From: Candidatus Hodarchaeota archaeon
Lineage (GTDB): Archaea; Asgardarchaeota; Heimdallarchaeia; Hodarchaeales; Hodarchaeaceae
NCBI GenBank assembly: GCA_029856365.1
Contig: JAHQWW010000014.1
Location: 1 to 55,069 of the forward strand
Length of the DNA stretch: 55,069 nt
Direction of reading: 5' to 3'
The notes beneath the pieces are model-generated. The model made no database searches and was not told the origin of the DNA. It was given only the letters and a program-made list of their open reading frames with translations. Numbering within the stretch: the stretch's first letter is position 1; the number at the start of each line of letters is the position of its first letter. Made by a program: the position numbers and the translations under genes. Of this stretch, positions 3,717-19,070 are shown piece after piece.

Positions 3717-5132
3717 ATGGGAGTAATTTTAGACTTCATAGCATTATTGCGTTATCTTGGTTTGCCTATCTCCCCAGATGAAACCATAACTGCTCAGAAA
3801 ACTTACCAAATTTTAGGGGTACAAGAAAAGGAAACATTACAGTTTGGATTGAAAGCATCTATTGTGAAGAAACGAGAAGACTTTCACATTTTTGATGTTG
3901 CCTTCGAGTCTTTTTTCACTCATCAATCAGCTAATATTCTAACGGATCAGGATCTTGAATCATACGAACGTGCAAAAAGTAGATTCATTGAACGACTAGA
4001 AGAAACACGCCTTCTAGAAATTGGAGTCATGTTGCTAGAAAACCAAATAGATCAAGCAGTTCAACAAGTAGAAAAAATAATGACCCAAGAAGCAGCCACC
4101 TCATCAGGTCAATCAATGAGTAGATTCATAGATCTCCAGAATAGTCTTCAGAGAGCATTTCGATTAGCATTTGGAGTTAGGGTACCTATCCGTGACTTAA
4201 CACCAAGTCAACGTCAAGATTTACCTTCAGAAACTATTAGAATGGGAACAAATCTCCAATTGTTCAAGCAGGTGATGATTAAAACGTTTCAAAATCAACT
4301 TCAAGAAAATTTAAACGAGTTAGAACGATTACAACAAGAAAATCCAGCAGAAATATCGCCTATAGACTCTTTCTTACACAAGGACCTTTCTTACCTTTCT
4401 ATATCTGTTACAAATGTGAAAGAACAGCTTATCGAAATGGGTTGCATTCTAGCTTCCCGGGAGAGACGACGTCGAAAACGTGCGAAGTATGGAAAACTTG
4501 ACTTTAGGCGGACATTTAGAAAAAATTTGGCTAATAATGGTGTTCCTGTTGATTTAGTACAAAAGAAAAAAAGAATTCAGGATCCTGAAGTAATCATTCT
4601 GAATGATGTCTCAGGATCCACAAGGTGGGTGGCAGATTGGTTTTTTGTGATTACTTATGCAGCTCGAAGTGTCTTTAAGAAAGTTAGAATATTTGAATTT
4701 GACAATACAATGGTAGAAGTTTCTGCAGCTCTAGAACGGAAAACAATTGATCGGGCACTAGAAGAAAGAGATCTATGTTGGGAAAAAACACTCCGACCAA
4801 GAAGAATTCACTCAGATTATCAAAGTTCATTGGAAGATTTCTTCCTTTTAATAAAATATCGACCAATTTCACGACGTACTACGGTATTAATTCTTGGGGA
4901 CTGTCGTGATAATGAGGGAATGTGGAATGCCACGAGACCAATCAGTGCAGAATTGTTAGAGAAGATAGTTTTACCTGCAAAAAGAGTTATTATCCTAAAT
5001 CCTGAAAATAAATCTTTATGGAATACAGGTGATTCAGTAGTTCAATACTACGATACCATAGGCGCAGAAGTATATCATATGGAGACTTTAAATGATTTAG
5101 TGAGATTCGTGTTTGAACTGAAGCATAATTAA
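3717..5132 (+). CDS. VWA-domain protein (CoxE-like), MoxR partner
   Basis: GKLDFRRTFRKNL, MIDAS DVSGS, ILGDCRDN, LNPE...W.TGDS; directly follows MoxR gene. Confidence 0.9.
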   Translation: MGVILDFIALLRYLGLPISPDETITAQKTYQILGVQEKETLQFGLKASIVKKREDFHIFDVAFESFFTHQSANILTDQDLESYERAKSRFIERLEETRLLEIGVMLLENQIDQAVQQVEKIMTQEAATSSGQSMSRFIDLQNSLQRAFRLAFGVRVPIRDLTPSQRQDLPSETIRMGTNLQLFKQVMIKTFQNQLQENLNELERLQQENPAEISPIDSFLHKDLSYLSISVTNVKEQLIEMGCILASRERRRRKRAKYGKLDFRRTFRKNLANNGVPVDLVQKKKRIQDPEVIILNDVSGSTRWVADWFFVITYAARSVFKKVRIFEFDNTMVEVSAALERKTIDRALEERDLCWEKTLRPRRIHSDYQSSLEDFFLLIKYRPISRRTTVLILGDCRDNEGMWNATRPISAELLEKIVLPAKRVIILNPENKSLWNTGDSVVQYYDTIGAEVYHMETLNDLVRFVFELKHN

Positions 5133-5167
5133 GATATTGTCATGCACATTCGTGGTTTCATACACCT

Positions 5168-5677
5168 TCATATCTCCAAACGAACAATAAATATGATATT
5201 TCCTATAATAAATCCGAATATGCATAGTGAATAGATTAATGTTCCTGGAACAATTCCATACAATGGATTACCAACTCCCAAAGGATAAAGTAAATCCATT
5301 TCACTATATAAAGGCGCATCAAGGATAATATGAGAGAAAGTTCCAAGAAAAGCGCTGAGAAGAGAGCATCCTAAGGAGTATTCAGGAAGTGAGAAGGGCA
5401 GATTCAATTGAAACTGCTCAATTAACTGCGGGAATAGATACTTAAAACAAAACCATGAGCTTATCCCAGTAAGTAGGCCTAAAAATAAGGCTCCTGTGAA
5501 TGAATGTAGAGGACCATGAAGAGGGAGCCCCATCCCTGGCAGAATAAACCATGCGGTGATTCCTTCGATATCTGGGATAACACTCCCAACAAAAAGGGCT
5601 ATCGGGTCTAAGAAAATCAGTAAAGCTTGGATAAGTATACTGATTCCCCAATGAAAAGGTGTAAATGGCAATTTCAT
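5168..5677 (-). CDS. membrane-bound metal-dependent hydrolase-like protein (YdjM/DUF457-like)
   Basis: PFTPFH, IPDIE, HGPLHS, SHIILD motifs. Start placed at ATG 5677 (or TTG 5671) rather than 5824. Confidence 0.75.
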   Translation of the reverse strand: MKLPFTPFHWGISILIQALLIFLDPIALFVGSVIPDIEGITAWFILPGMGLPLHGPLHSFTGALFLGLLTGISSWFCFKYLFPQLIEQFQLNLPFSLPEYSLGCSLLSAFLGTFSHIILDAPLYSEMDLLYPLGVGNPLYGIVPGTLIYSLCIFGFIIGNIIFIVRLEI

Positions 5678-11939: not shown

Positions 11940-13190
11940 TCAAGCCATAATATCAAATATTTCTTGTAAGGTTTCTACAAAGATATTAACCTCTTCAACA
12001 GTATTATACAAATACCAGCTAGGACGTAGTGTACCCACGTCGAGATGCTTTTCATGGTGGAATGCGTGCGTACAGTGGAATCCTGATCGAAGAAATATAT
12101 TTTTCATTTCATCCATTAGAATCGCAACTTCGTGTGGGTTTATTTGACCTTTCAAATCAATAGCCGCTAATGCTGCTCTCTGTTCAGGATTTTCTGGGCC
12201 TAAAATGTGTATTTTATTCCCTAAAGTTTCTCTCAAATTATTTATCATTGTTCGACTGAGAAGCTTCTCATGAGATTGGATTTTATCCATACCAACTGAC
12301 GCTAGATATTCCACAGTTGCACCTGATGCTATTGCTCCTGCATAATTCTGAAGACCTGCCTCAAACTTGGTTGGAGGACTAAGAAGCTTGATATCATGAG
12401 GATAATGAACATCAGAAACGGTTTCCCCACCTAGAATCAAAGGTTCTGTTTTTTCTAGAAGATCATATCGTCCATAGAGAAAGCCCATGCCTGTTGGCCC
12501 ACAAGCTTTATGCATAGATGCAGCAAATAGATCTACCTCCATTTTTTGGACATCAATTGGTCGATGGGGAAAACTTTGAGCTGCATCCAATTGTAATATA
12601 CCATCTCTTTCGTGTACGATTTGAGCTATCTCAGTTTCAGGAATATGGGCAGCAGTAACATTACTAGTGTGGTTTAAACTCGCGAGAAAATTCCCCTCCT
12701 CACACTTCTCCACAATTTCAGTAAATTCTTCGAGATTAAACATTCCAGTTAATGGCATTTCCATGATTTTTAATTCGATTTTTCCTAAGTTATGCAACCT
12801 AACCCATTTCACCAAATTAGAATTGTGACTTTCAGATGTTGTGATGATGGTCCCCTTTCCATTTTCTTCGAGAGAGAGACAATGGCTTCCCAAGTTTAAT
12901 GCTTCAGTTGTATTCCGTACCCACACAATTTCAGCGGGATTTTTTGCGTTGATAAACCTTGCCAAATCTTTTCGAGCGTCATCATATAGACGAGTTGTTT
13001 TTAACGAAAAAGCATGGGGGCTGCGGCCAGCACATGCAGTATATTCAGTGTAATATGCTACCAGAGCATCGATGACCTGTTGAGGCTTGAGTGCCATACA
13101 AGCCGAGTCAGCATAAATAATTGGTTTTCCATCTTTAAGTTGGTGAAGCGCTGGAAAATCAGTTCTAACTTTATTTACGTCCAATCCCAT
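11940..13190 (-). CDS. sufS: cysteine desulfurase, SufS/CsdA type (class V PLP)
   Basis: RTDFPAL, YADSA, NTTEALN, DAAQS, SMHK (PLP Lys), FEAG, RSGFHC catalytic Cys. Confidence 0.9.
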   Translation of the reverse strand: MGLDVNKVRTDFPALHQLKDGKPIIYADSACMALKPQQVIDALVAYYTEYTACAGRSPHAFSLKTTRLYDDARKDLARFINAKNPAEIVWVRNTTEALNLGSHCLSLEENGKGTIITTSESHNSNLVKWVRLHNLGKIELKIMEMPLTGMFNLEEFTEIVEKCEEGNFLASLNHTSNVTAAHIPETEIAQIVHERDGILQLDAAQSFPHRPIDVQKMEVDLFAASMHKACGPTGMGFLYGRYDLLEKTEPLILGGETVSDVHYPHDIKLLSPPTKFEAGLQNYAGAIASGATVEYLASVGMDKIQSHEKLLSRTMINNLRETLGNKIHILGPENPEQRAALAAIDLKGQINPHEVAILMDEMKNIFLRSGFHCTHAFHHEKHLDVGTLRPSWYLYNTVEEVNIFVETLQEIFDIMA

Positions 13191-13673
13191 TTTAAGAACC
13201 ACCTGTAACGAGTAAGATGCATTCAATCGCTAAGGTTAATCAATACTTCGATTTTATTGCTTTTTTACCTTCATTTTGCGTTTGAACCAACTTTTCTAGT
13301 AGTTTTTAGGACTGTTGGCTAGTAACCTAAGAGATAATTCATTTAAGAAATACATCTTTAGACTTTATGATCTCACTGAAAGGCTTATTATTAAAACCTG
13401 GGATATTGTAACATGATGTATTTCTCCCGAATATGTTCCAATCTTCAGAGATTCAAAATGCTAATTCTTTATTGAAGTTTAAGGTTAGTAGATTTATATA
13501 AAAACACTCAACAGCTTCCTTAATAACATAAAATCTTAGTATAAGAAGTAATTTTTTGATAAAACTGAAACCCCAAAATTAATGATTGATATCCAAAAGT
13601 TAATGAACCCTTAAATCGTCAGAGTAAAACTGAGGTCATCAATAAAGAAGGAAATTAGGCTGAAAAAGAGAGG

Positions 13674-14834
13674 TTGATACTTAAATTCTTGATTCCTCCA
13701 AGTATTTTCCTAAAAATGCTTAGTACACTCGTTTTTATTATTATTTCAAATAACCACGAGTTTAGATGGTATCAACTTTATAGTGGGCAATCAAATTACG
13801 TTATAAGCGATATCATTGAGGCTAAAGATGGAAATTTTATTGTTATTGGAACCAAGATGCATGGTTCAAGTGCAGCAAAGATTTGGTTAATGAAAGTAAA
13901 TACTGACGGTCACCCCTTATGGAATAAATCTTTGAGTAACTCACCAGCAGAAGGGCATTCGATTGCTGAATGTTCTGATGGGGGATTTATCATAGCTGGG
14001 GAATTCTTTAATGAATCATTATGGCGATGGCAAATTTTACTGTTGAGAATTTCTGAAGATGGTACTGTTTTGTGGAGTAAAAATTTACTCAATAAAATCC
14101 AAGATGAAAGGCCTTACGATATTCTTCGATCCAGTGACGGGGGATTCGCTATTACTGGTTCTAGAGACAAAGACAGTTATTATCGAGATTGCCTAGTAAC
14201 AAAAATCGACTCCTTTGGTAATAAACTTTGGGACTATAGCTTTGGGGGATATTCAACAGATGTTGCTTATTCTATTGTTGAGACAGCAGTGGAAGAATTT
14301 GTGGTTGCAGGTCGTACACGTTTTCTTTCAGGTAAGGGAAATACCAACATGTACCTAGCAAAATTAAATGCTAGTGGACTAATTTGGGAAAAGGCCTTTG
14401 GTGGAAGTTTATATACGAAAGCTTACGATCTACTAAAGACATCTGATGGAGGATTAGTTTTAGTTGGATGCTCACGAGAAAGTTATGAAGATGACAATCA
14501 CTTTACTGTTGTTAGAGTAGACAACGAAGGAGAAACTAAATGGAGTAAGGTCTATGATTACAAAGGAATTGGTTTTTGTATAATTCAACCTAATGACGAA
14601 AACCTAGTAATAGTTGGTGAGACTAGATCTATGCAACGTATACTAGTTTTAAAAACAGATATGAATGGAAGTGTAGTCGCTCATCAGCAATATGGCAGAG
14701 AAGAATATACGGAAAGAGTAACATCAATTATCCAAGCCTCCACAGAAGATCTAATAATGGTAGGTTATAGTGAAATAGGTGGAGATTGGGAACCACGGAT
14801 TGTTGAAGCATGGTTTCACAAAATTATAATATAA
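13674..14834 (+). CDS. beta-propeller-like repeat protein (W-x-K-x-x-GG / DGG repeats), probably secreted
   Basis: About 50-aa repeats such as 'KIDSFGNKLWDYSFGG...AYSIVET' and 'LIWEKAFGG...AYDLLKTSDGGLVLVG'. Confidence 0.65.
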   Translation: MILKFLIPPSIFLKMLSTLVFIIISNNHEFRWYQLYSGQSNYVISDIIEAKDGNFIVIGTKMHGSSAAKIWLMKVNTDGHPLWNKSLSNSPAEGHSIAECSDGGFIIAGEFFNESLWRWQILLLRISEDGTVLWSKNLLNKIQDERPYDILRSSDGGFAITGSRDKDSYYRDCLVTKIDSFGNKLWDYSFGGYSTDVAYSIVETAVEEFVVAGRTRFLSGKGNTNMYLAKLNASGLIWEKAFGGSLYTKAYDLLKTSDGGLVLVGCSRESYEDDNHFTVVRVDNEGETKWSKVYDYKGIGFCIIQPNDENLVIVGETRSMQRILVLKTDMNGSVVAHQQYGREEYTERVTSIIQASTEDLIMVGYSEIGGDWEPRIVEAWFHKIII

Positions 14835-15205
14835 ATGAATAATCGTTCTATAATCATTCTACGATATATTAATATTTTGTAATACATTTATTCGATTAAA
14901 AATAGAAAAACAATATCTTATACGCTTTCTTCTTGTATAAACTATTCTAAATATAGATCTAGAAGTTAATGCATTCTTGTTCATATTTACATGGGTTAAT
15001 GGTCTTGATTAAAGATAATAAAATTCCAATATCTCATTCTAATGAATGGATTGCGTTTAATTGCATTGGGTTATCAGTTTGAATAAAAGTAAAATCATAT
15101 GCTTAATATTTATGATAATCATTTTATTTTGTACACTTTATTTCTGGCCAAGCTGATTGAGAAGATTACTACCAGGAAAGTTAAAAATGTAAAAGTGAAT
15201 TTATC

Positions 15206-15346
15206 TTACAGTTCTCCTAAAAGGCTCCGAATTCGATTTTTGAGGGCCATTTTTTCCTGTATTATCTCATTAATTTCCTGGGAAATTGTAATTCTTGTTT
15301 CTGTTTCTTGAGGTATCGGTAATAATAAGTCCACTCTCTGACTCAT
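15206..15346 (-). CDS. 46-aa microprotein or gene relic duplicating the C-terminal HsdS-type helix of the upstream methyltransferase
   Basis: MSQRVDLLLPIPQETETRITISQEINEIIQEKMALKNRIRSLLGEL*; 28/41 aa identical to the MTase C-terminus; starts 31 nt after the MTase stop. Confidence 0.6.
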   Translation of the reverse strand: MSQRVDLLLPIPQETETRITISQEINEIIQEKMALKNRIRSLLGEL

Positions 15347-15377
15347 AATAAGATAATCACTAAGATTTTCATTCCCT

Positions 15378-17441
15378 TTAATTATTCAGGATCTCTAATG
15401 TTCGACGAATTCTCTCTCTCAAAGCCATTTTTTCCTGAATAATTTCTTCTATTTCTTGTGAAATAGCATTTCGTTTTTCCTTCTCTCGTGGTATTGGCAA
15501 AACCAAATCCATTAGTCGATTTCCTAGGGTTGAAATTGTTGATTGAATGAACGTCTTTGCTCTTATTTGATCTTGTACAATATCCGTATTAAGAGCCCAC
15601 AATAATAGGTTTTCATCTAAAAACTCTTTTTTCACTACTCTTATCTTTTTCAGATGGCTTTGGATAAGAATTTGGGTATCCTTCTCTGTTATCATTGCTG
15701 TTTTCCCTATTAAAAACGTACCATCATTTACTAATAGAATATCTCCAGCTCTAATATCCTGTTTGTCTTTATATAGCTCATATACCTCCCTTGCGACTTG
15801 TTTTTTTGGATCAATATTAATTTCCCAGTTAATAAGATCTGACGTTCTTACGAATGGAATTGGACCAGTACCATAAAATTTGGATCCTATTTCGTGTCCC
15901 CGTGTTATTTGAATTGTTCCTTTTTTTACTAAGTCACCAATTCTAACCAGTTGATATTTCCCCTCGTTTTCAATGATATATAAACGTTGAGCGATCTCTG
16001 GATTATAGTACTCGGGAATGAGAATTTGGTTCTCAATCTGGGAGCTCGTAAAGATAAAGCCTAAGTGTGATTGATCTTGCAAAGTACCCGCTCTAAATTC
16101 TCTATAATTTTCGACTATTTTGGGAAAGTCATCATTAATTATCTTATTTCCATTAGTATCTAGTATGAAATTTCCTTTATTATCTATTAGGTAGAGTGGT
16201 TTGCCGTTTTTATCGTGTCCAACGTTTTCTGTAATAGCCATAAATAAAGAATAATCTTGTTGCGGCTTACGTTTTTCTACGAACAGGAGTGATGTTTTAG
16301 TATGTGTGTGGGGGAGAAATGCGAGATGTGAACAGCTTATTAACGCTAGGATTTTCACATGTTGTCGTAAATAGTATAGAATGTATCGATCTGAAGGATT
16401 TCCAAAGATTCCATCTGGTAATATTATTCCTAATCGACCACCTGGTTTCAGAAGCTTAAGACACCGTTCAATAAAAAGTATTTGAGGTGGTTGCTTCTCT
16501 TGAAGAGTTTCGGTTTTATGCCAAGATCCATCAGCTTGTTTCTTCCATTTATGACCTAGATGGTAATCACGTAATATTTCCTTCGATTTAATGGGTATTT
16601 TTGCTCCAAATGGTGGATTTGTGCATACTATATCAAAGCTATTTAGTTTAATTGTTTCGAATACCTTTGAACTCCAGCTCTCCGGTGGATTTAGGGAATT
16701 TTCACAAAATACTACTTTTTCTTGGAAACCCAGTATAGCTAGATATAGTTGAGTAATCTTTGCTAGAAACTGATCCTTGTCAATCCCGAATAATACATTC
16801 ATATTATATGGTTCTTGTACACCTTTATTCTCATTTTTTTTTGTTTGTTGAGCTAATCTTACTATTAGAAATCCACCTGTTCCACAAGCAGGATCTATAA
16901 ATCGCTCGTTTGGCTTTGGATCAAGGATTTCAATCATTGTCTGAACTATATTTCGGGGAGTAAAGAATTGTCCTTTGTTACCTCTGAGTGATGGTCCAAG
17001 AAATATTTCAAATGCATCTCCAATTGCATCACGACTTGCTTTTATGATACTAAACTTTTCAATACTCTCCACTATTGAAGTTAATGATGTTTCATCCACA
17101 AACAATCTATCGTGGTCATCAAACATTGAGCTGTATTGGTTTTTGAGCTGATTAAATAGCAGAGTTACTCTTTCTAATATGTTACTATTTGAATAAATAT
17201 CATGGTAATTTAATTGGAAGAGAACTGGCTCATCAGGAGAACCAGTTAATTCGTCATAGATCTTACAAAACAAAAGAAAGATTAGCTGTTCAGCGAGTCT
17301 TTCGTCTCTAGTTGTTCCAACGAAATTTCCAGCAAGGTGATTTCGCATTCTCTTAAAAATTTGTTTTAAATCTTTAACCTCAACTAAATCTTTACGATAG
17401 ATTATCTTATTTGCGTCAGATGCCAGAACGGATCTCACCAC
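15378..17441 (-). CDS. N6-adenine DNA methyltransferase fused to a single TRD (HsdM-half-HsdS fusion)
   Basis: GQFFTP, DPACGTGGF (motif I), NPPF (motif IV), GIILPDG; C-terminal TRD (IPFVRTSDL, GDILL) plus LPIP-helix; no nuclease domain. Confidence 0.9.
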   Translation of the reverse strand: MVRSVLASDANKIIYRKDLVEVKDLKQIFKRMRNHLAGNFVGTTRDERLAEQLIFLLFCKIYDELTGSPDEPVLFQLNYHDIYSNSNILERVTLLFNQLKNQYSSMFDDHDRLFVDETSLTSIVESIEKFSIIKASRDAIGDAFEIFLGPSLRGNKGQFFTPRNIVQTMIEILDPKPNERFIDPACGTGGFLIVRLAQQTKKNENKGVQEPYNMNVLFGIDKDQFLAKITQLYLAILGFQEKVVFCENSLNPPESWSSKVFETIKLNSFDIVCTNPPFGAKIPIKSKEILRDYHLGHKWKKQADGSWHKTETLQEKQPPQILFIERCLKLLKPGGRLGIILPDGIFGNPSDRYILYYLRQHVKILALISCSHLAFLPHTHTKTSLLFVEKRKPQQDYSLFMAITENVGHDKNGKPLYLIDNKGNFILDTNGNKIINDDFPKIVENYREFRAGTLQDQSHLGFIFTSSQIENQILIPEYYNPEIAQRLYIIENEGKYQLVRIGDLVKKGTIQITRGHEIGSKFYGTGPIPFVRTSDLINWEINIDPKKQVAREVYELYKDKQDIRAGDILLVNDGTFLIGKTAMITEKDTQILIQSHLKKIRVVKKEFLDENLLLWALNTDIVQDQIRAKTFIQSTISTLGNRLMDLVLPIPREKEKRNAISQEIEEIIQEKMALRERIRRTLEILNN

Positions 17442-17693: not shown

Positions 17694-18521
17694 ATGCACC
17701 CAAACATGTTTGGTTATCCTGTTGAAGTTTCCAAGCATGAAGATGGGGAATGGCCCTTCGATACAAAATTTGATCAAATAGAAATTCTTCAATGTCTTAA
17801 TGCTTTCTTTGGCCATCCAGATATGCATAGCAACATCTTTCAGTTTTATGAGGTAAATAGACCGGGGTATGGAATAGATCGAGGAGTTACCGTCCTGATT
17901 AATCAACAGAATGAATACTATGCTATCAGAATCTTTACAAAACCTGGTATTATATCCAATAAAGTTCCTTTTGATCCTGCAGCTTATATCAAAGATCGGA
18001 TTCAACGGCTTTATATGGCACTACGAGACCACTATCCAGCTACTTATTTCCTTAATACAAAACACCTTTTGATCATTCTCCAGCAGTTTGTGTTTTTTCC
18101 AGTATGTCAATTCATTAATCCTAGTGAAATAAGAGATCTCTTAGAGATAATGTGGTATGCGTCTAAAGCTCGTATCCTTCTTGACTATAATCAAAATCAT
18201 TGGTTAGTTTCGGATGATGGGCATCTATTATATGTCGATACTGATTTCATGGGACAAATCCTAAAGGATCGTTATAGTGCTCTGTCTGAAAATTTTAATC
18301 AAGCAATGGTGTTCATTAACCATAAGAATTGTAATATACTTGCCAAAATATTACCAGAATTTGCAACTAGGGGAAATAATTACGCTCAATTCTTGGATGA
18401 ATTTTTCCTTGTGCTTAAAAACTACCTAGAGAGCTGGGAAAAGGTTGAGATAATCTCTGAAAAAGTTCAAAGTAAATTAGATTGTTTTCAGAACATTTTT
18501 GACAAATACTGGGCTAGGTAA
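17694..18521 (+). CDS. hypothetical protein, possible degenerate protein-kinase-like fold
   Basis: YAIRIF and LLDYNQNHWLVSDDGHLLYVDTDF resemble the VAIK, catalytic loop and DFG spacing. Confidence 0.45.
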   Translation: MHPNMFGYPVEVSKHEDGEWPFDTKFDQIEILQCLNAFFGHPDMHSNIFQFYEVNRPGYGIDRGVTVLINQQNEYYAIRIFTKPGIISNKVPFDPAAYIKDRIQRLYMALRDHYPATYFLNTKHLLIILQQFVFFPVCQFINPSEIRDLLEIMWYASKARILLDYNQNHWLVSDDGHLLYVDTDFMGQILKDRYSALSENFNQAMVFINHKNCNILAKILPEFATRGNNYAQFLDEFFLVLKNYLESWEKVEIISEKVQSKLDCFQNIFDKYWAR

Positions 18522-18527
18522 TCAAAA

Positions 18528-19070
18528 TTGTCCAGTGATTTAATGTTTAAACACATATTTGTAAGTGGGAGGCCTGGAATTGGAAAAACAACATTAATAA
18601 AAAAGATTGTAACAAAAATCAAAAGAACAAAGCCTAATTGGAATATTACAGGCTTTTATACAAGTGAATGTCGCCAAGATGGACAAAGGATAGGATTCAA
18701 CATTTATACACTAGATGGACAACAGGGTGTCCTTGCTCGATTGAATGACCCCAAATTCAAAACTACTTTTCGTGTAGGAAAATATTCAGTTAATATTGCG
18801 GATTTAAATAATATTGCTGTTCCTAGTTTGTATACAAATACAGATCTTCTCATAATTGATGAGCTAGGGAAAATGGAACTCTTTTCTCTTGAATTTAGAA
18901 AAGCTGTGGAACATGCGCTTGATAATTACCCCAGAATATTAGGAACGATTCCCTATTTCGAAAATTCTTTTCTTTCTTCTATTAAACGAAGACCTAACAT
19001 CGTAATATGGGAGTTGACACAGTTAAATCGAAAAAAGGTGTTTGAAAAGGTTATGGGGGTATTTAAATAG
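18528..19070 (+). CDS. nucleoside-triphosphatase (THEP1/NTPase_1 family)
   Basis: GRPGIGKTT, GFYT.E.R..G.R.GF, VGKY, IIDELGKME. Confidence 0.9.
   Translation: MSSDLMFKHIFVSGRPGIGKTTLIKKIVTKIKRTKPNWNITGFYTSECRQDGQRIGFNIYTLDGQQGVLARLNDPKFKTTFRVGKYSVNIADLNNIAVPSLYTNTDLLIIDELGKMELFSLEFRKAVEHALDNYPRILGTIPYFENSFLSSIKRRPNIVIWELTQLNRKKVFEKVMGVFK

Follow-up and report, generated by a model that had tools for sequence, protein, structure and literature searches.

Behind a DNA methyltransferase gene of Candidatus Hodarchaeota archaeon (assembly GCA_029856365.1, contig JAHQWW010000014.1) lies, on the same strand, a 46-codon open reading frame (ORF) whose product copies only the C-terminal helix of the methyltransferase (MTase). 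We analyzed this ORF, its parent gene, and their surroundings in a stretch of 55,069 nt, referred to here as the window, and we conclude that the ORF is very probably a gene remnant, namely the stranded 3' end of a second copy of the MTase gene without a function of its own, and not a conserved regulatory microprotein. The remnant most likely comprises the last ~140 nt of that second copy together with ~350 nt of the copy's own 3' flank, and it starts 28 nt past the stop codon of the resident gene. The second copy appears to be of the type found in the lineages denoted G009 and P0010, and the resident gene, like the rest of the genome, of the type of G007. Nothing points to a selected role of the peptide.

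The ORF as a Copy of the Methyltransferase Tail

The ORF occupies positions 15206-15346 of the minus strand, from ATG to TAA, and begins 31 nt beyond the TAA stop of the MTase ORF (15380-15378), exactly where a preliminary description of this DNA had placed it. The 46-residue peptide (P0001) is identical to the MTase at 27 of 39 ungapped positions in BLASTP (E 2e-14). A direct count over strings of 41 residues finds 28 identities with the C-terminal helix of the MTase, without indels; 17 of the 28 shared residues use different codons, and 81 of the 123 nucleotides are identical, so that the residue and codon counts in the preliminary description are reproduced. The likeness is real and far beyond chance. 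The ORF and the MTase tail form the top direct repeat in the surrounding 15 kb (106 nt, 71%, spacing 178), and the longest run of identity between them is ~14 nt.

An assembly artefact was ruled out by the presence of the same arrangement, with an identical ORF in the same context, on 10 metagenome contigs from independent assemblies (ENA, JGI, Logan). Among the contigs listed (9 of the 10), all are >99.9% identical to the window, hence clonal, and show one arrangement only; at this level of identity, they therefore carry no information on selection.

Homology beyond the Stop of the ORF

The homology does not end with the ORF. In a blastn comparison, positions 15333-14857 are colinear over 497 nt with 4895-5386 of the MTase locus of the P0010 lineage (L077; 73.6% identity, E 2e-82), from 128 nt before the MTase stop of that lineage to 364 nt past it, just short of a PadR gene. 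The similarity thus extends ~350 nt past the stop of the ORF into non-coding flank, at 68-78% identity per 100-nt block. The ORF itself ends in LLGEL and a stop, which matches the ILGEL and stop of the P0010 enzyme in length and pattern. Because the homology passes the stop codon and the tail ends as in P0010, the block 15349-14857 is best read as a gene tail with its own native flank: the ORF (15206..15346, minus strand) would preserve the last ~41 codons and the native stop of a second, G009/P0010-type allele, as judged from nucleotide identities and the shared ending, and the adjoining segment (14857..15205, minus strand) would be the 3' flank carried with it, colinear with the MTase-PadR intergenic DNA of the P0010 lineage. 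This flank has no other copy in its own genome, nor is it otherwise found in the genus.

The phylogenetic affinity of the two tails was assessed from nucleotide identities over the 36 best-aligned codons (108 nt). The remnant is closest to G009 (86/108), followed by the P0010 lineage (82/108), G007 (77/108), and, last, the resident gene next to which it lies (74/108). The resident tail is closest to G007 (92/108), with fewer identities to the P0010 lineage (76/108) and G009 (74/108). Four-point distances and a maximum likelihood tree separate the resident gene and G007 (bootstrap 75) from the other sequences and assign the remnant to the G009/P0010 group, with the reservation that the tree is built from only 108 nt and has weak internal supports. 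Both sides of the locus and two distant genes of the window have G007 as their nearest relative, and its ortholog is the nearest relative of the resident MTase throughout (73-90% in 150-nt sliding windows). Since the resident gene and the rest of the genome are closest to G007, the remnant is the odd one out. Flank homology, affinity, and native stop together bear out an alternative that the preliminary description had held in reserve, that of a leftover 3' end of a displaced homolog.

The flank also merits attention in its own right. Positions 14857-15205 are as conserved toward the P0010 lineage as coding DNA (75-78% per 100 nt), with several identical blocks of 15-25 bases, and their counterpart in that lineage sits upstream of the PadR regulator gene, which is missing here. 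The segment may therefore hold a regulatory element or a small RNA; an Rfam scan of 14700-15500 returned only a chance-level match to a small nucleolar RNA (E 0.61).

Restriction of the Helix Copy to One Species

A tblastn search with the peptide and the last 50 residues of the enzyme found a single copy, the end of the gene itself, at each of 16 loci of the genus, the window alone having two, and no second copy lies downstream of the MTase in four further lineages recovered from metagenomes. When the peptide was searched against all six frames of the 21 congeneric genomes, each genome returned one match, always inside an MTase frame of 516-701 codons, apart from G015, where the gene is split and the match lies in a frame of 358 codons. 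Only G000 returned a second match, in a 59-codon frame that is the window's own ORF and the sole short-frame match of the search.

In a collection of 5.8 billion proteins, only the query itself resembles the peptide among proteins of 25-81 residues, a negative that counts as moderate evidence, as small ORFs are under-called in protein collections. Among longer proteins, the sole match, and thus the closest in the database, is the G009 MTase at 74%. A scan of metagenome contigs with the MTase for a closer donor yielded only one distant locus. The preliminary description had suggested looking for the same small ORF behind orthologous MTases; it is absent at ~20 such loci, and its ATG has no counterpart elsewhere. 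Because relatives carry nothing here and the ATG is not conserved, the microprotein interpretation is refuted as far as sequence tells.

Codon Differences between the Two Tails

The many identities written with different codons had been taken in the preliminary description as a sign that the two copies diverged under protein-level selection. This does not hold once the remnant is compared with the genes to which it is closest. Between the remnant and G009, the ratio of non-synonymous to synonymous substitution rates (dN/dS) is 0.09 (13.5 synonymous and 8.5 non-synonymous differences), a pairwise value that cannot be assigned to the period after truncation, and genuine ortholog pairs over the same codons give 0.08-0.17. 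The synonymous-rich divergence of remnant and resident thus appears to be the ordinary divergence between the orthologs of two species. Because the copy groups with the tails of other species and its dN/dS equals that of ortholog pairs, the constraint on its codons would have been earned within full-length genes, and the differences do not show selection on a 46-residue product.

Junction, Expression Signals, and a Possible Course of Events

Between the MTase stop and the start of remnant homology lies a spacer of 28 nt (15350..15377, minus strand), which is 29% identical to L077, a random level, and has no significant similarity to the 3' flank of G007 (shuffle test, p ~0.5). For want of such similarity, we rejected the idea that the spacer derives from the beginning of the MBL gene that lies downstream in G007. 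The probable 5' edge of the remnant follows (15334..15349, minus strand), a degenerate stretch of 16-19 aligned nucleotides corresponding to the conserved codons ...TLGNRLM.... With one gap, and over these 16-19 nt only, it matches L077 of the P0010 lineage at 11/17 positions and the ortholog consensus at ~13/19. In this edge alignment, the remnant has TTA TGA in place of TTA GGA, the codons of a conserved Leu-Gly pair, so that the ancestral frame meets a stop; the ATG of the ORF (15346-15344) overlaps this TGA, starting one base earlier, and 8 nt further along the remnant lacks 1 nt. The alignment is suggestive only of an ATG that arose by a G-to-T change in the conserved Gly codon, with a 1-nt deletion that restored the ancestral frame. 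If the alignment is right, the start of the ORF would be a by-product of these two junction lesions.

No run of T occurs from the MTase stop to the ORF, and TTTT and TTTTT follow the ORF stop. Archaeal termination occurs at oligo-T, and, since the first T-runs come after the ORF stop, the remnant is probably part of the 3' end (3' untranslated region) of the MTase transcript. The ORF might then be translated at a low level. A scan for bacterial-type promoters and terminators, a method not suited to archaea, stayed at shuffle level.

Most likely, the remnant arose when DNA from the orthologous locus of a G009/P0010-group species recombined with the resident locus. One end would have been joined illegitimately at 28 nt past the resident stop, in the manner of homology-facilitated illegitimate recombination (HFIR) or C-terminal displacement, and a later rearrangement would have brought in the beta-propeller gene that now borders the block. 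The event may have run in either direction, with foreign DNA inserted or an older tail of the resident locus displaced. Great age is unlikely, since neutral evolution would have eroded both the 80% identity to G009 and the ortholog-like dN/dS.

Several points weigh against a functionless, transferred gene tail. No crossover was found in the MTase gene or in the 1.7 kb upstream of it (no step in identity to G007, G009, or P0010 in 150-nt windows), and no donor closer than 80% nucleotide identity occurs among the sampled sequences. The ORF has an ATG and, 9 nt upstream of it, a weak Shine-Dalgarno-like GTGAT; matches of at least 5 nt to the anti-Shine-Dalgarno sequence precede ~10 of the 46 long ORFs of the window, which makes GTGAT weak evidence. 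Its 41 homologous codons carry no stop or frameshift. On the remnant's own branch, hand parsimony gives ~7 non-synonymous to 8 synonymous changes, a dN/dS of ~0.2 and not 1, from counts too small to decide, and these changes include R to Q and N to I, each at a position that does not vary in the six closest orthologs. All nine metagenome copies are clonal, and a young remnant and a selected peptide would look alike from sequence alone.

The Resident Methyltransferase

The resident gene (15378..17441, minus strand, GTG start) encodes a full-length N6-adenine DNA MTase of 687 residues with one HsdS-type target recognition domain (TRD) and a C-terminal helix, as identified from Pfam, an AlphaFold2 model, and synteny. 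It matches Pfam N6_Mtase (PF02384) at 1.9e-38, as well as the Eco57I and MmeI_Mtase families, and its translation contains the NPPF-type catalytic motif as TNPPFG, with N275, P276, P277, and F278 invariant in 70 homologs. The AlphaFold2 model, built on these 70 homologs, has a predicted local distance difference test score (pLDDT) of 88 and a predicted template modeling score (pTM) of 0.86. It consists of an HsdM-like N-terminal part, the catalytic domain, a short helix (476-493), the TRD (~496-651), and a 33-residue C-terminal helix (654-686), which has a pLDDT of 94-97 in the monomer.

The N-terminal two thirds of the model resemble RM.BsaXI and Type I M subunits (Z 26-29), and the full span of MTase, TRD, and helix aligns with CamA (Z 24.7, residues 134-678), M.BseCI, DrdV (Z 22.6 over residues 16-687), LlaGI, and BrxX; the fold also aligns with the TRDs of CamA, M.TaqI, and DrdV. 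Residues 470-687 have no direct Pfam match. The full-length homologs P0055 and P0059 (~50% identity), which match PF01420 (Methylase_S) with 28.7 and 33.7 bits against a cut-off of 22, justify the name of an M-S fusion with one TRD, and the P0055 match runs through the last helix. In calling the upstream gene an M-S methyltransferase, the preliminary description was thus correct, as the PF01420 matches of the homologs and the alignment of the fold both indicate.

The TRD is as conserved as the catalytic domain among the 70 archaeal and bacterial homologs, and residues 514 to 642 include dozens of invariant columns; each ortholog contains one TRD only and terminates with the same helix. Because its TRD is as conserved as the catalytic core, this does not appear to be a family that shuffles specificity domains. 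CamA, M.BseCI, DrdV, and LlaGI, the best full-length structural matches, act on asymmetric sites, and we take them to be single-chain monomeric enzymes. A dimerizing role of the C-terminal helix would be an assumption, an unproven candidate only.

The MTase is a syntenic core gene with an ortholog in 18 of the 21 congeners (48-85% identity), and these orthologs adjoin the same divergently transcribed 275-residue gene and a THEP1-type NTPase gene. No nuclease gene adjoins the MTase in the window, and the enzyme is thus solitary.

Beyond the genus, the family is very large, with >6,500 matches at E<=1e-20 and full-length homologs of ~50% identity in both bacteria and archaea (P0052-P0120). Some homologs of ~840 residues carry an N-terminal HSDR_N_2 nuclease domain, and the Asgard version is without it. 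A partial match to the MADS MAD2 model reaches 346 bits against a cut-off of 720.

Three observations concern broken or partial forms of the gene. On a JGI 3300028897 contig of 102 kb (locus L031), which is otherwise identical to the window, 86 nt of the MTase gene are absent (window 15872-15957, within the TRD), and the gene is split into frames of 508 and 169 residues; a population variant with a broken MTase may thus exist. In G015 (CP070760.1, a closed metagenome-assembled genome), the orthologous MTase is split at residue 373/374 into two halves (984763-985866 and 1075622-1076560, loci L061 and L062) that lie ~90 kb apart on opposite strands, which points either to an inversion that had one of its breakpoints in the gene or to a misassembly. 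In G014 (C308:26507-26932), a 185-codon open frame matches only residues 531-679 of the MTase (33% identity), that is, the distal TRD and the helix with no methylase domain, and could be a half-S-like gene or a paralog fragment.

Other Explanations for the ORF

A different origin is claimed by the view that the ORF is a functional, species-specific microprotein, a new gene made from a captured fragment and co-transcribed with the MTase, whose free helix would act as a decoy or cap at the docking or pairing site of the C-terminal helix. The intact frame with its ATG and the weak GTGAT at -9 is what such a gene would show, as are the lack of a T-run between the MTase stop and the ORF, the T4 and T5 right after it, the 41 codons without lesions at a low dN/dS to G009, and the identity of the ORF in all metagenome copies. 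However, the ORF occurs in none of the 21 congeners or four further lineages, and no similar small protein exists among 5.8 billion sequences; the low dN/dS is explained by a history inside the full-length gene, the identity of clonal copies says nothing on selection, and the start codon looks accidental. Moreover, because the architecture matches that of monomeric MTases with the equivalent helix in the same chain, and the helix is confidently placed in the monomer model (pLDDT 94-97), a dimer interface to cap is not established. We consider this microprotein very improbable, and the headline of the preliminary description, a helix-only decoy or cap under selection, has not survived the lack of any copy in 21 congeners or at ~20 loci. 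It is very unlikely, too, that a fragment captured from another species is now a newborn microprotein, made from the 3' end of the MTase mRNA, that binds the helix-docking surface of the MTase and tunes its assembly or activity.

Two further explanations were considered. The direct repeats, on the same strand and 178 nt apart, could reflect an in-place tandem duplication of the resident 3' end that later diverged, but no pair of the set is more distant than these two copies (74/108), each is closer to another species (remnant to G009, 86/108; resident to G007, 92/108), the flank of the remnant is homologous to that of the other lineage and not to the DNA beside the resident gene, and the sister species G007 is without a copy. 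Distances and flank homology led us to reject it, and we hold it to be scarcely plausible. HsdS-type genes shuffle TRDs at conserved helices, and the C-terminal domain is HsdS-like by homology, so the ORF could also be a TRD-swap scar, a silent cassette belonging to a phase-variable specificity system, or a distal helix left behind when a second TRD was deleted. Yet the TRD is conserved like the catalytic domain across the 70 homologs, every ortholog has a single TRD and the same terminal helix, no inverted copy or recombinase lies nearby, the neighbors are housekeeping genes, and nine assemblies show one arrangement only, with no identity run longer than ~14 nt between the copies. We rejected this group on the conserved single TRD and the lack of an inverted repeat or recombinase and give it almost no credence, and the TRD-swap scar or deleted second half-S gene offered by the preliminary description goes with it.

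A Rearrangement Hot Spot Downstream

The stranded tail lies in a tract, between the MTase and an aminotransferase gene, that differs in nearly every species and is in this sense a rearrangement hot spot. Most species carry a gene of ~275 residues (family F1) in the tract, G007 an MBL-fold gene, the P0010 lineage PadR and a 530-residue gene, and the window the remnant block and a beta-propeller gene. The anchors on either side are conserved. On the right lies a class-V aminotransferase (11940..13226, minus strand, Pfam 4.4e-93), found downstream of the MTase in nine of the mapped loci and 90% identical in amino acids to G007; on the left lie the uncharacterized 275-residue protein and the THEP1-type NTPase (17694..19070, plus strand), divergent from the MTase.

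The beta-propeller gene (13674..14834, plus strand) forms the right-hand limit of the remnant block, in a place where relatives carry other genes, and on the synteny map no other species has it at this locus. Its sole ortholog in the genus is in G011 (69% amino acid and 78.7% nucleotide identity), on another contig, and the homology ends at the gene borders; it appears to be a relocated or transferred gene at the hot spot. Co-transfer with the remnant was not supported, as the G011 ortholog lies elsewhere, with no remnant and no flank homology.

One gene of the window (3717-5132, 471 residues) has its nearest relatives in G017 (81%) and G014 (79%), with G007 at only 73%, while G007 is the nearest (84-87%) for two other genes of the window and for the MTase locus. 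This is a sign of mosaic ancestry, and species of the genus do exchange DNA.

Comparison with Known Systems and Biological Meaning

Half-size or truncated HsdS subunits dimerize via conserved helices in Type I and AhdI-like systems. The segment copied here is, similarly, the conserved helix after an HsdS-type TRD, in a protein whose homologs match PF01420. Unlike those subunits, the remnant is without any TRD, and its parent enzyme combines MTase, TRD, and helix in one chain. In this architecture, the MTase resembles the single-chain gamma-class N6-adenine MTases with a C-terminal TRD (CamA, 7lt5; M.BseCI, 7qw7; M.TaqI, 2adm) and the MTase-TRD modules of DrdV (7lo5), LlaGI (5ffj), and BrxX (9ewz), although its sequence identity to these six is only 12-17% and, in its N-terminal HsdM-like helical domain, it comes nearer to Type I M subunits and RM.BsaXI (Z 27-29). 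We know of no helix-only partner protein for CamA, M.BseCI, DrdV, or LlaGI.

The closest parallels to the stranded tail come from bacteria. C-terminal displacement leaves orphaned 3' ends behind rhs genes and the effector-immunity arrays of the Vibrio cholerae type VI secretion system (PMC5361080), and HFIR has been defined as a mechanism (PMC3240628). As with those orphaned ends, an intact gene is followed by the same-strand 3' end of another allele and that allele's downstream DNA, the displaced piece differs in phylogenetic affinity from the intact gene, and the junction is without homology. Unlike them, the present case has no toxin-immunity logic and no array, but a single remnant of a housekeeping-like orphan MTase in an Asgard archaeon; the homologous anchor was not found here, and for archaea we infer the mechanism, as we do the direction of the event and the lack of an own function.

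The ORF is thus, in our interpretation, a gene remnant of an ordinary and familiar kind, though its host is unusual. It is chiefly a caution, in that a short ORF that copies its neighbor with many synonymous differences mimics a selected paralog, and the same synonymous-rich pattern arises when the copy derives from another species' version of the gene. Were the peptide made and active after all, the locus would show an early stage in the birth of a gene from a recombination scar, in an Asgard archaeon. The MTase itself, as a conserved, solitary, and syntenic enzyme with a conserved recognition domain, is a candidate for an epigenetic rather than a defense role. For the genus, which is an Asgard (Hodarchaeales-like) one, the stranded tail would be a tangible trace of DNA passing between species, at a locus whose downstream side has been much rearranged.

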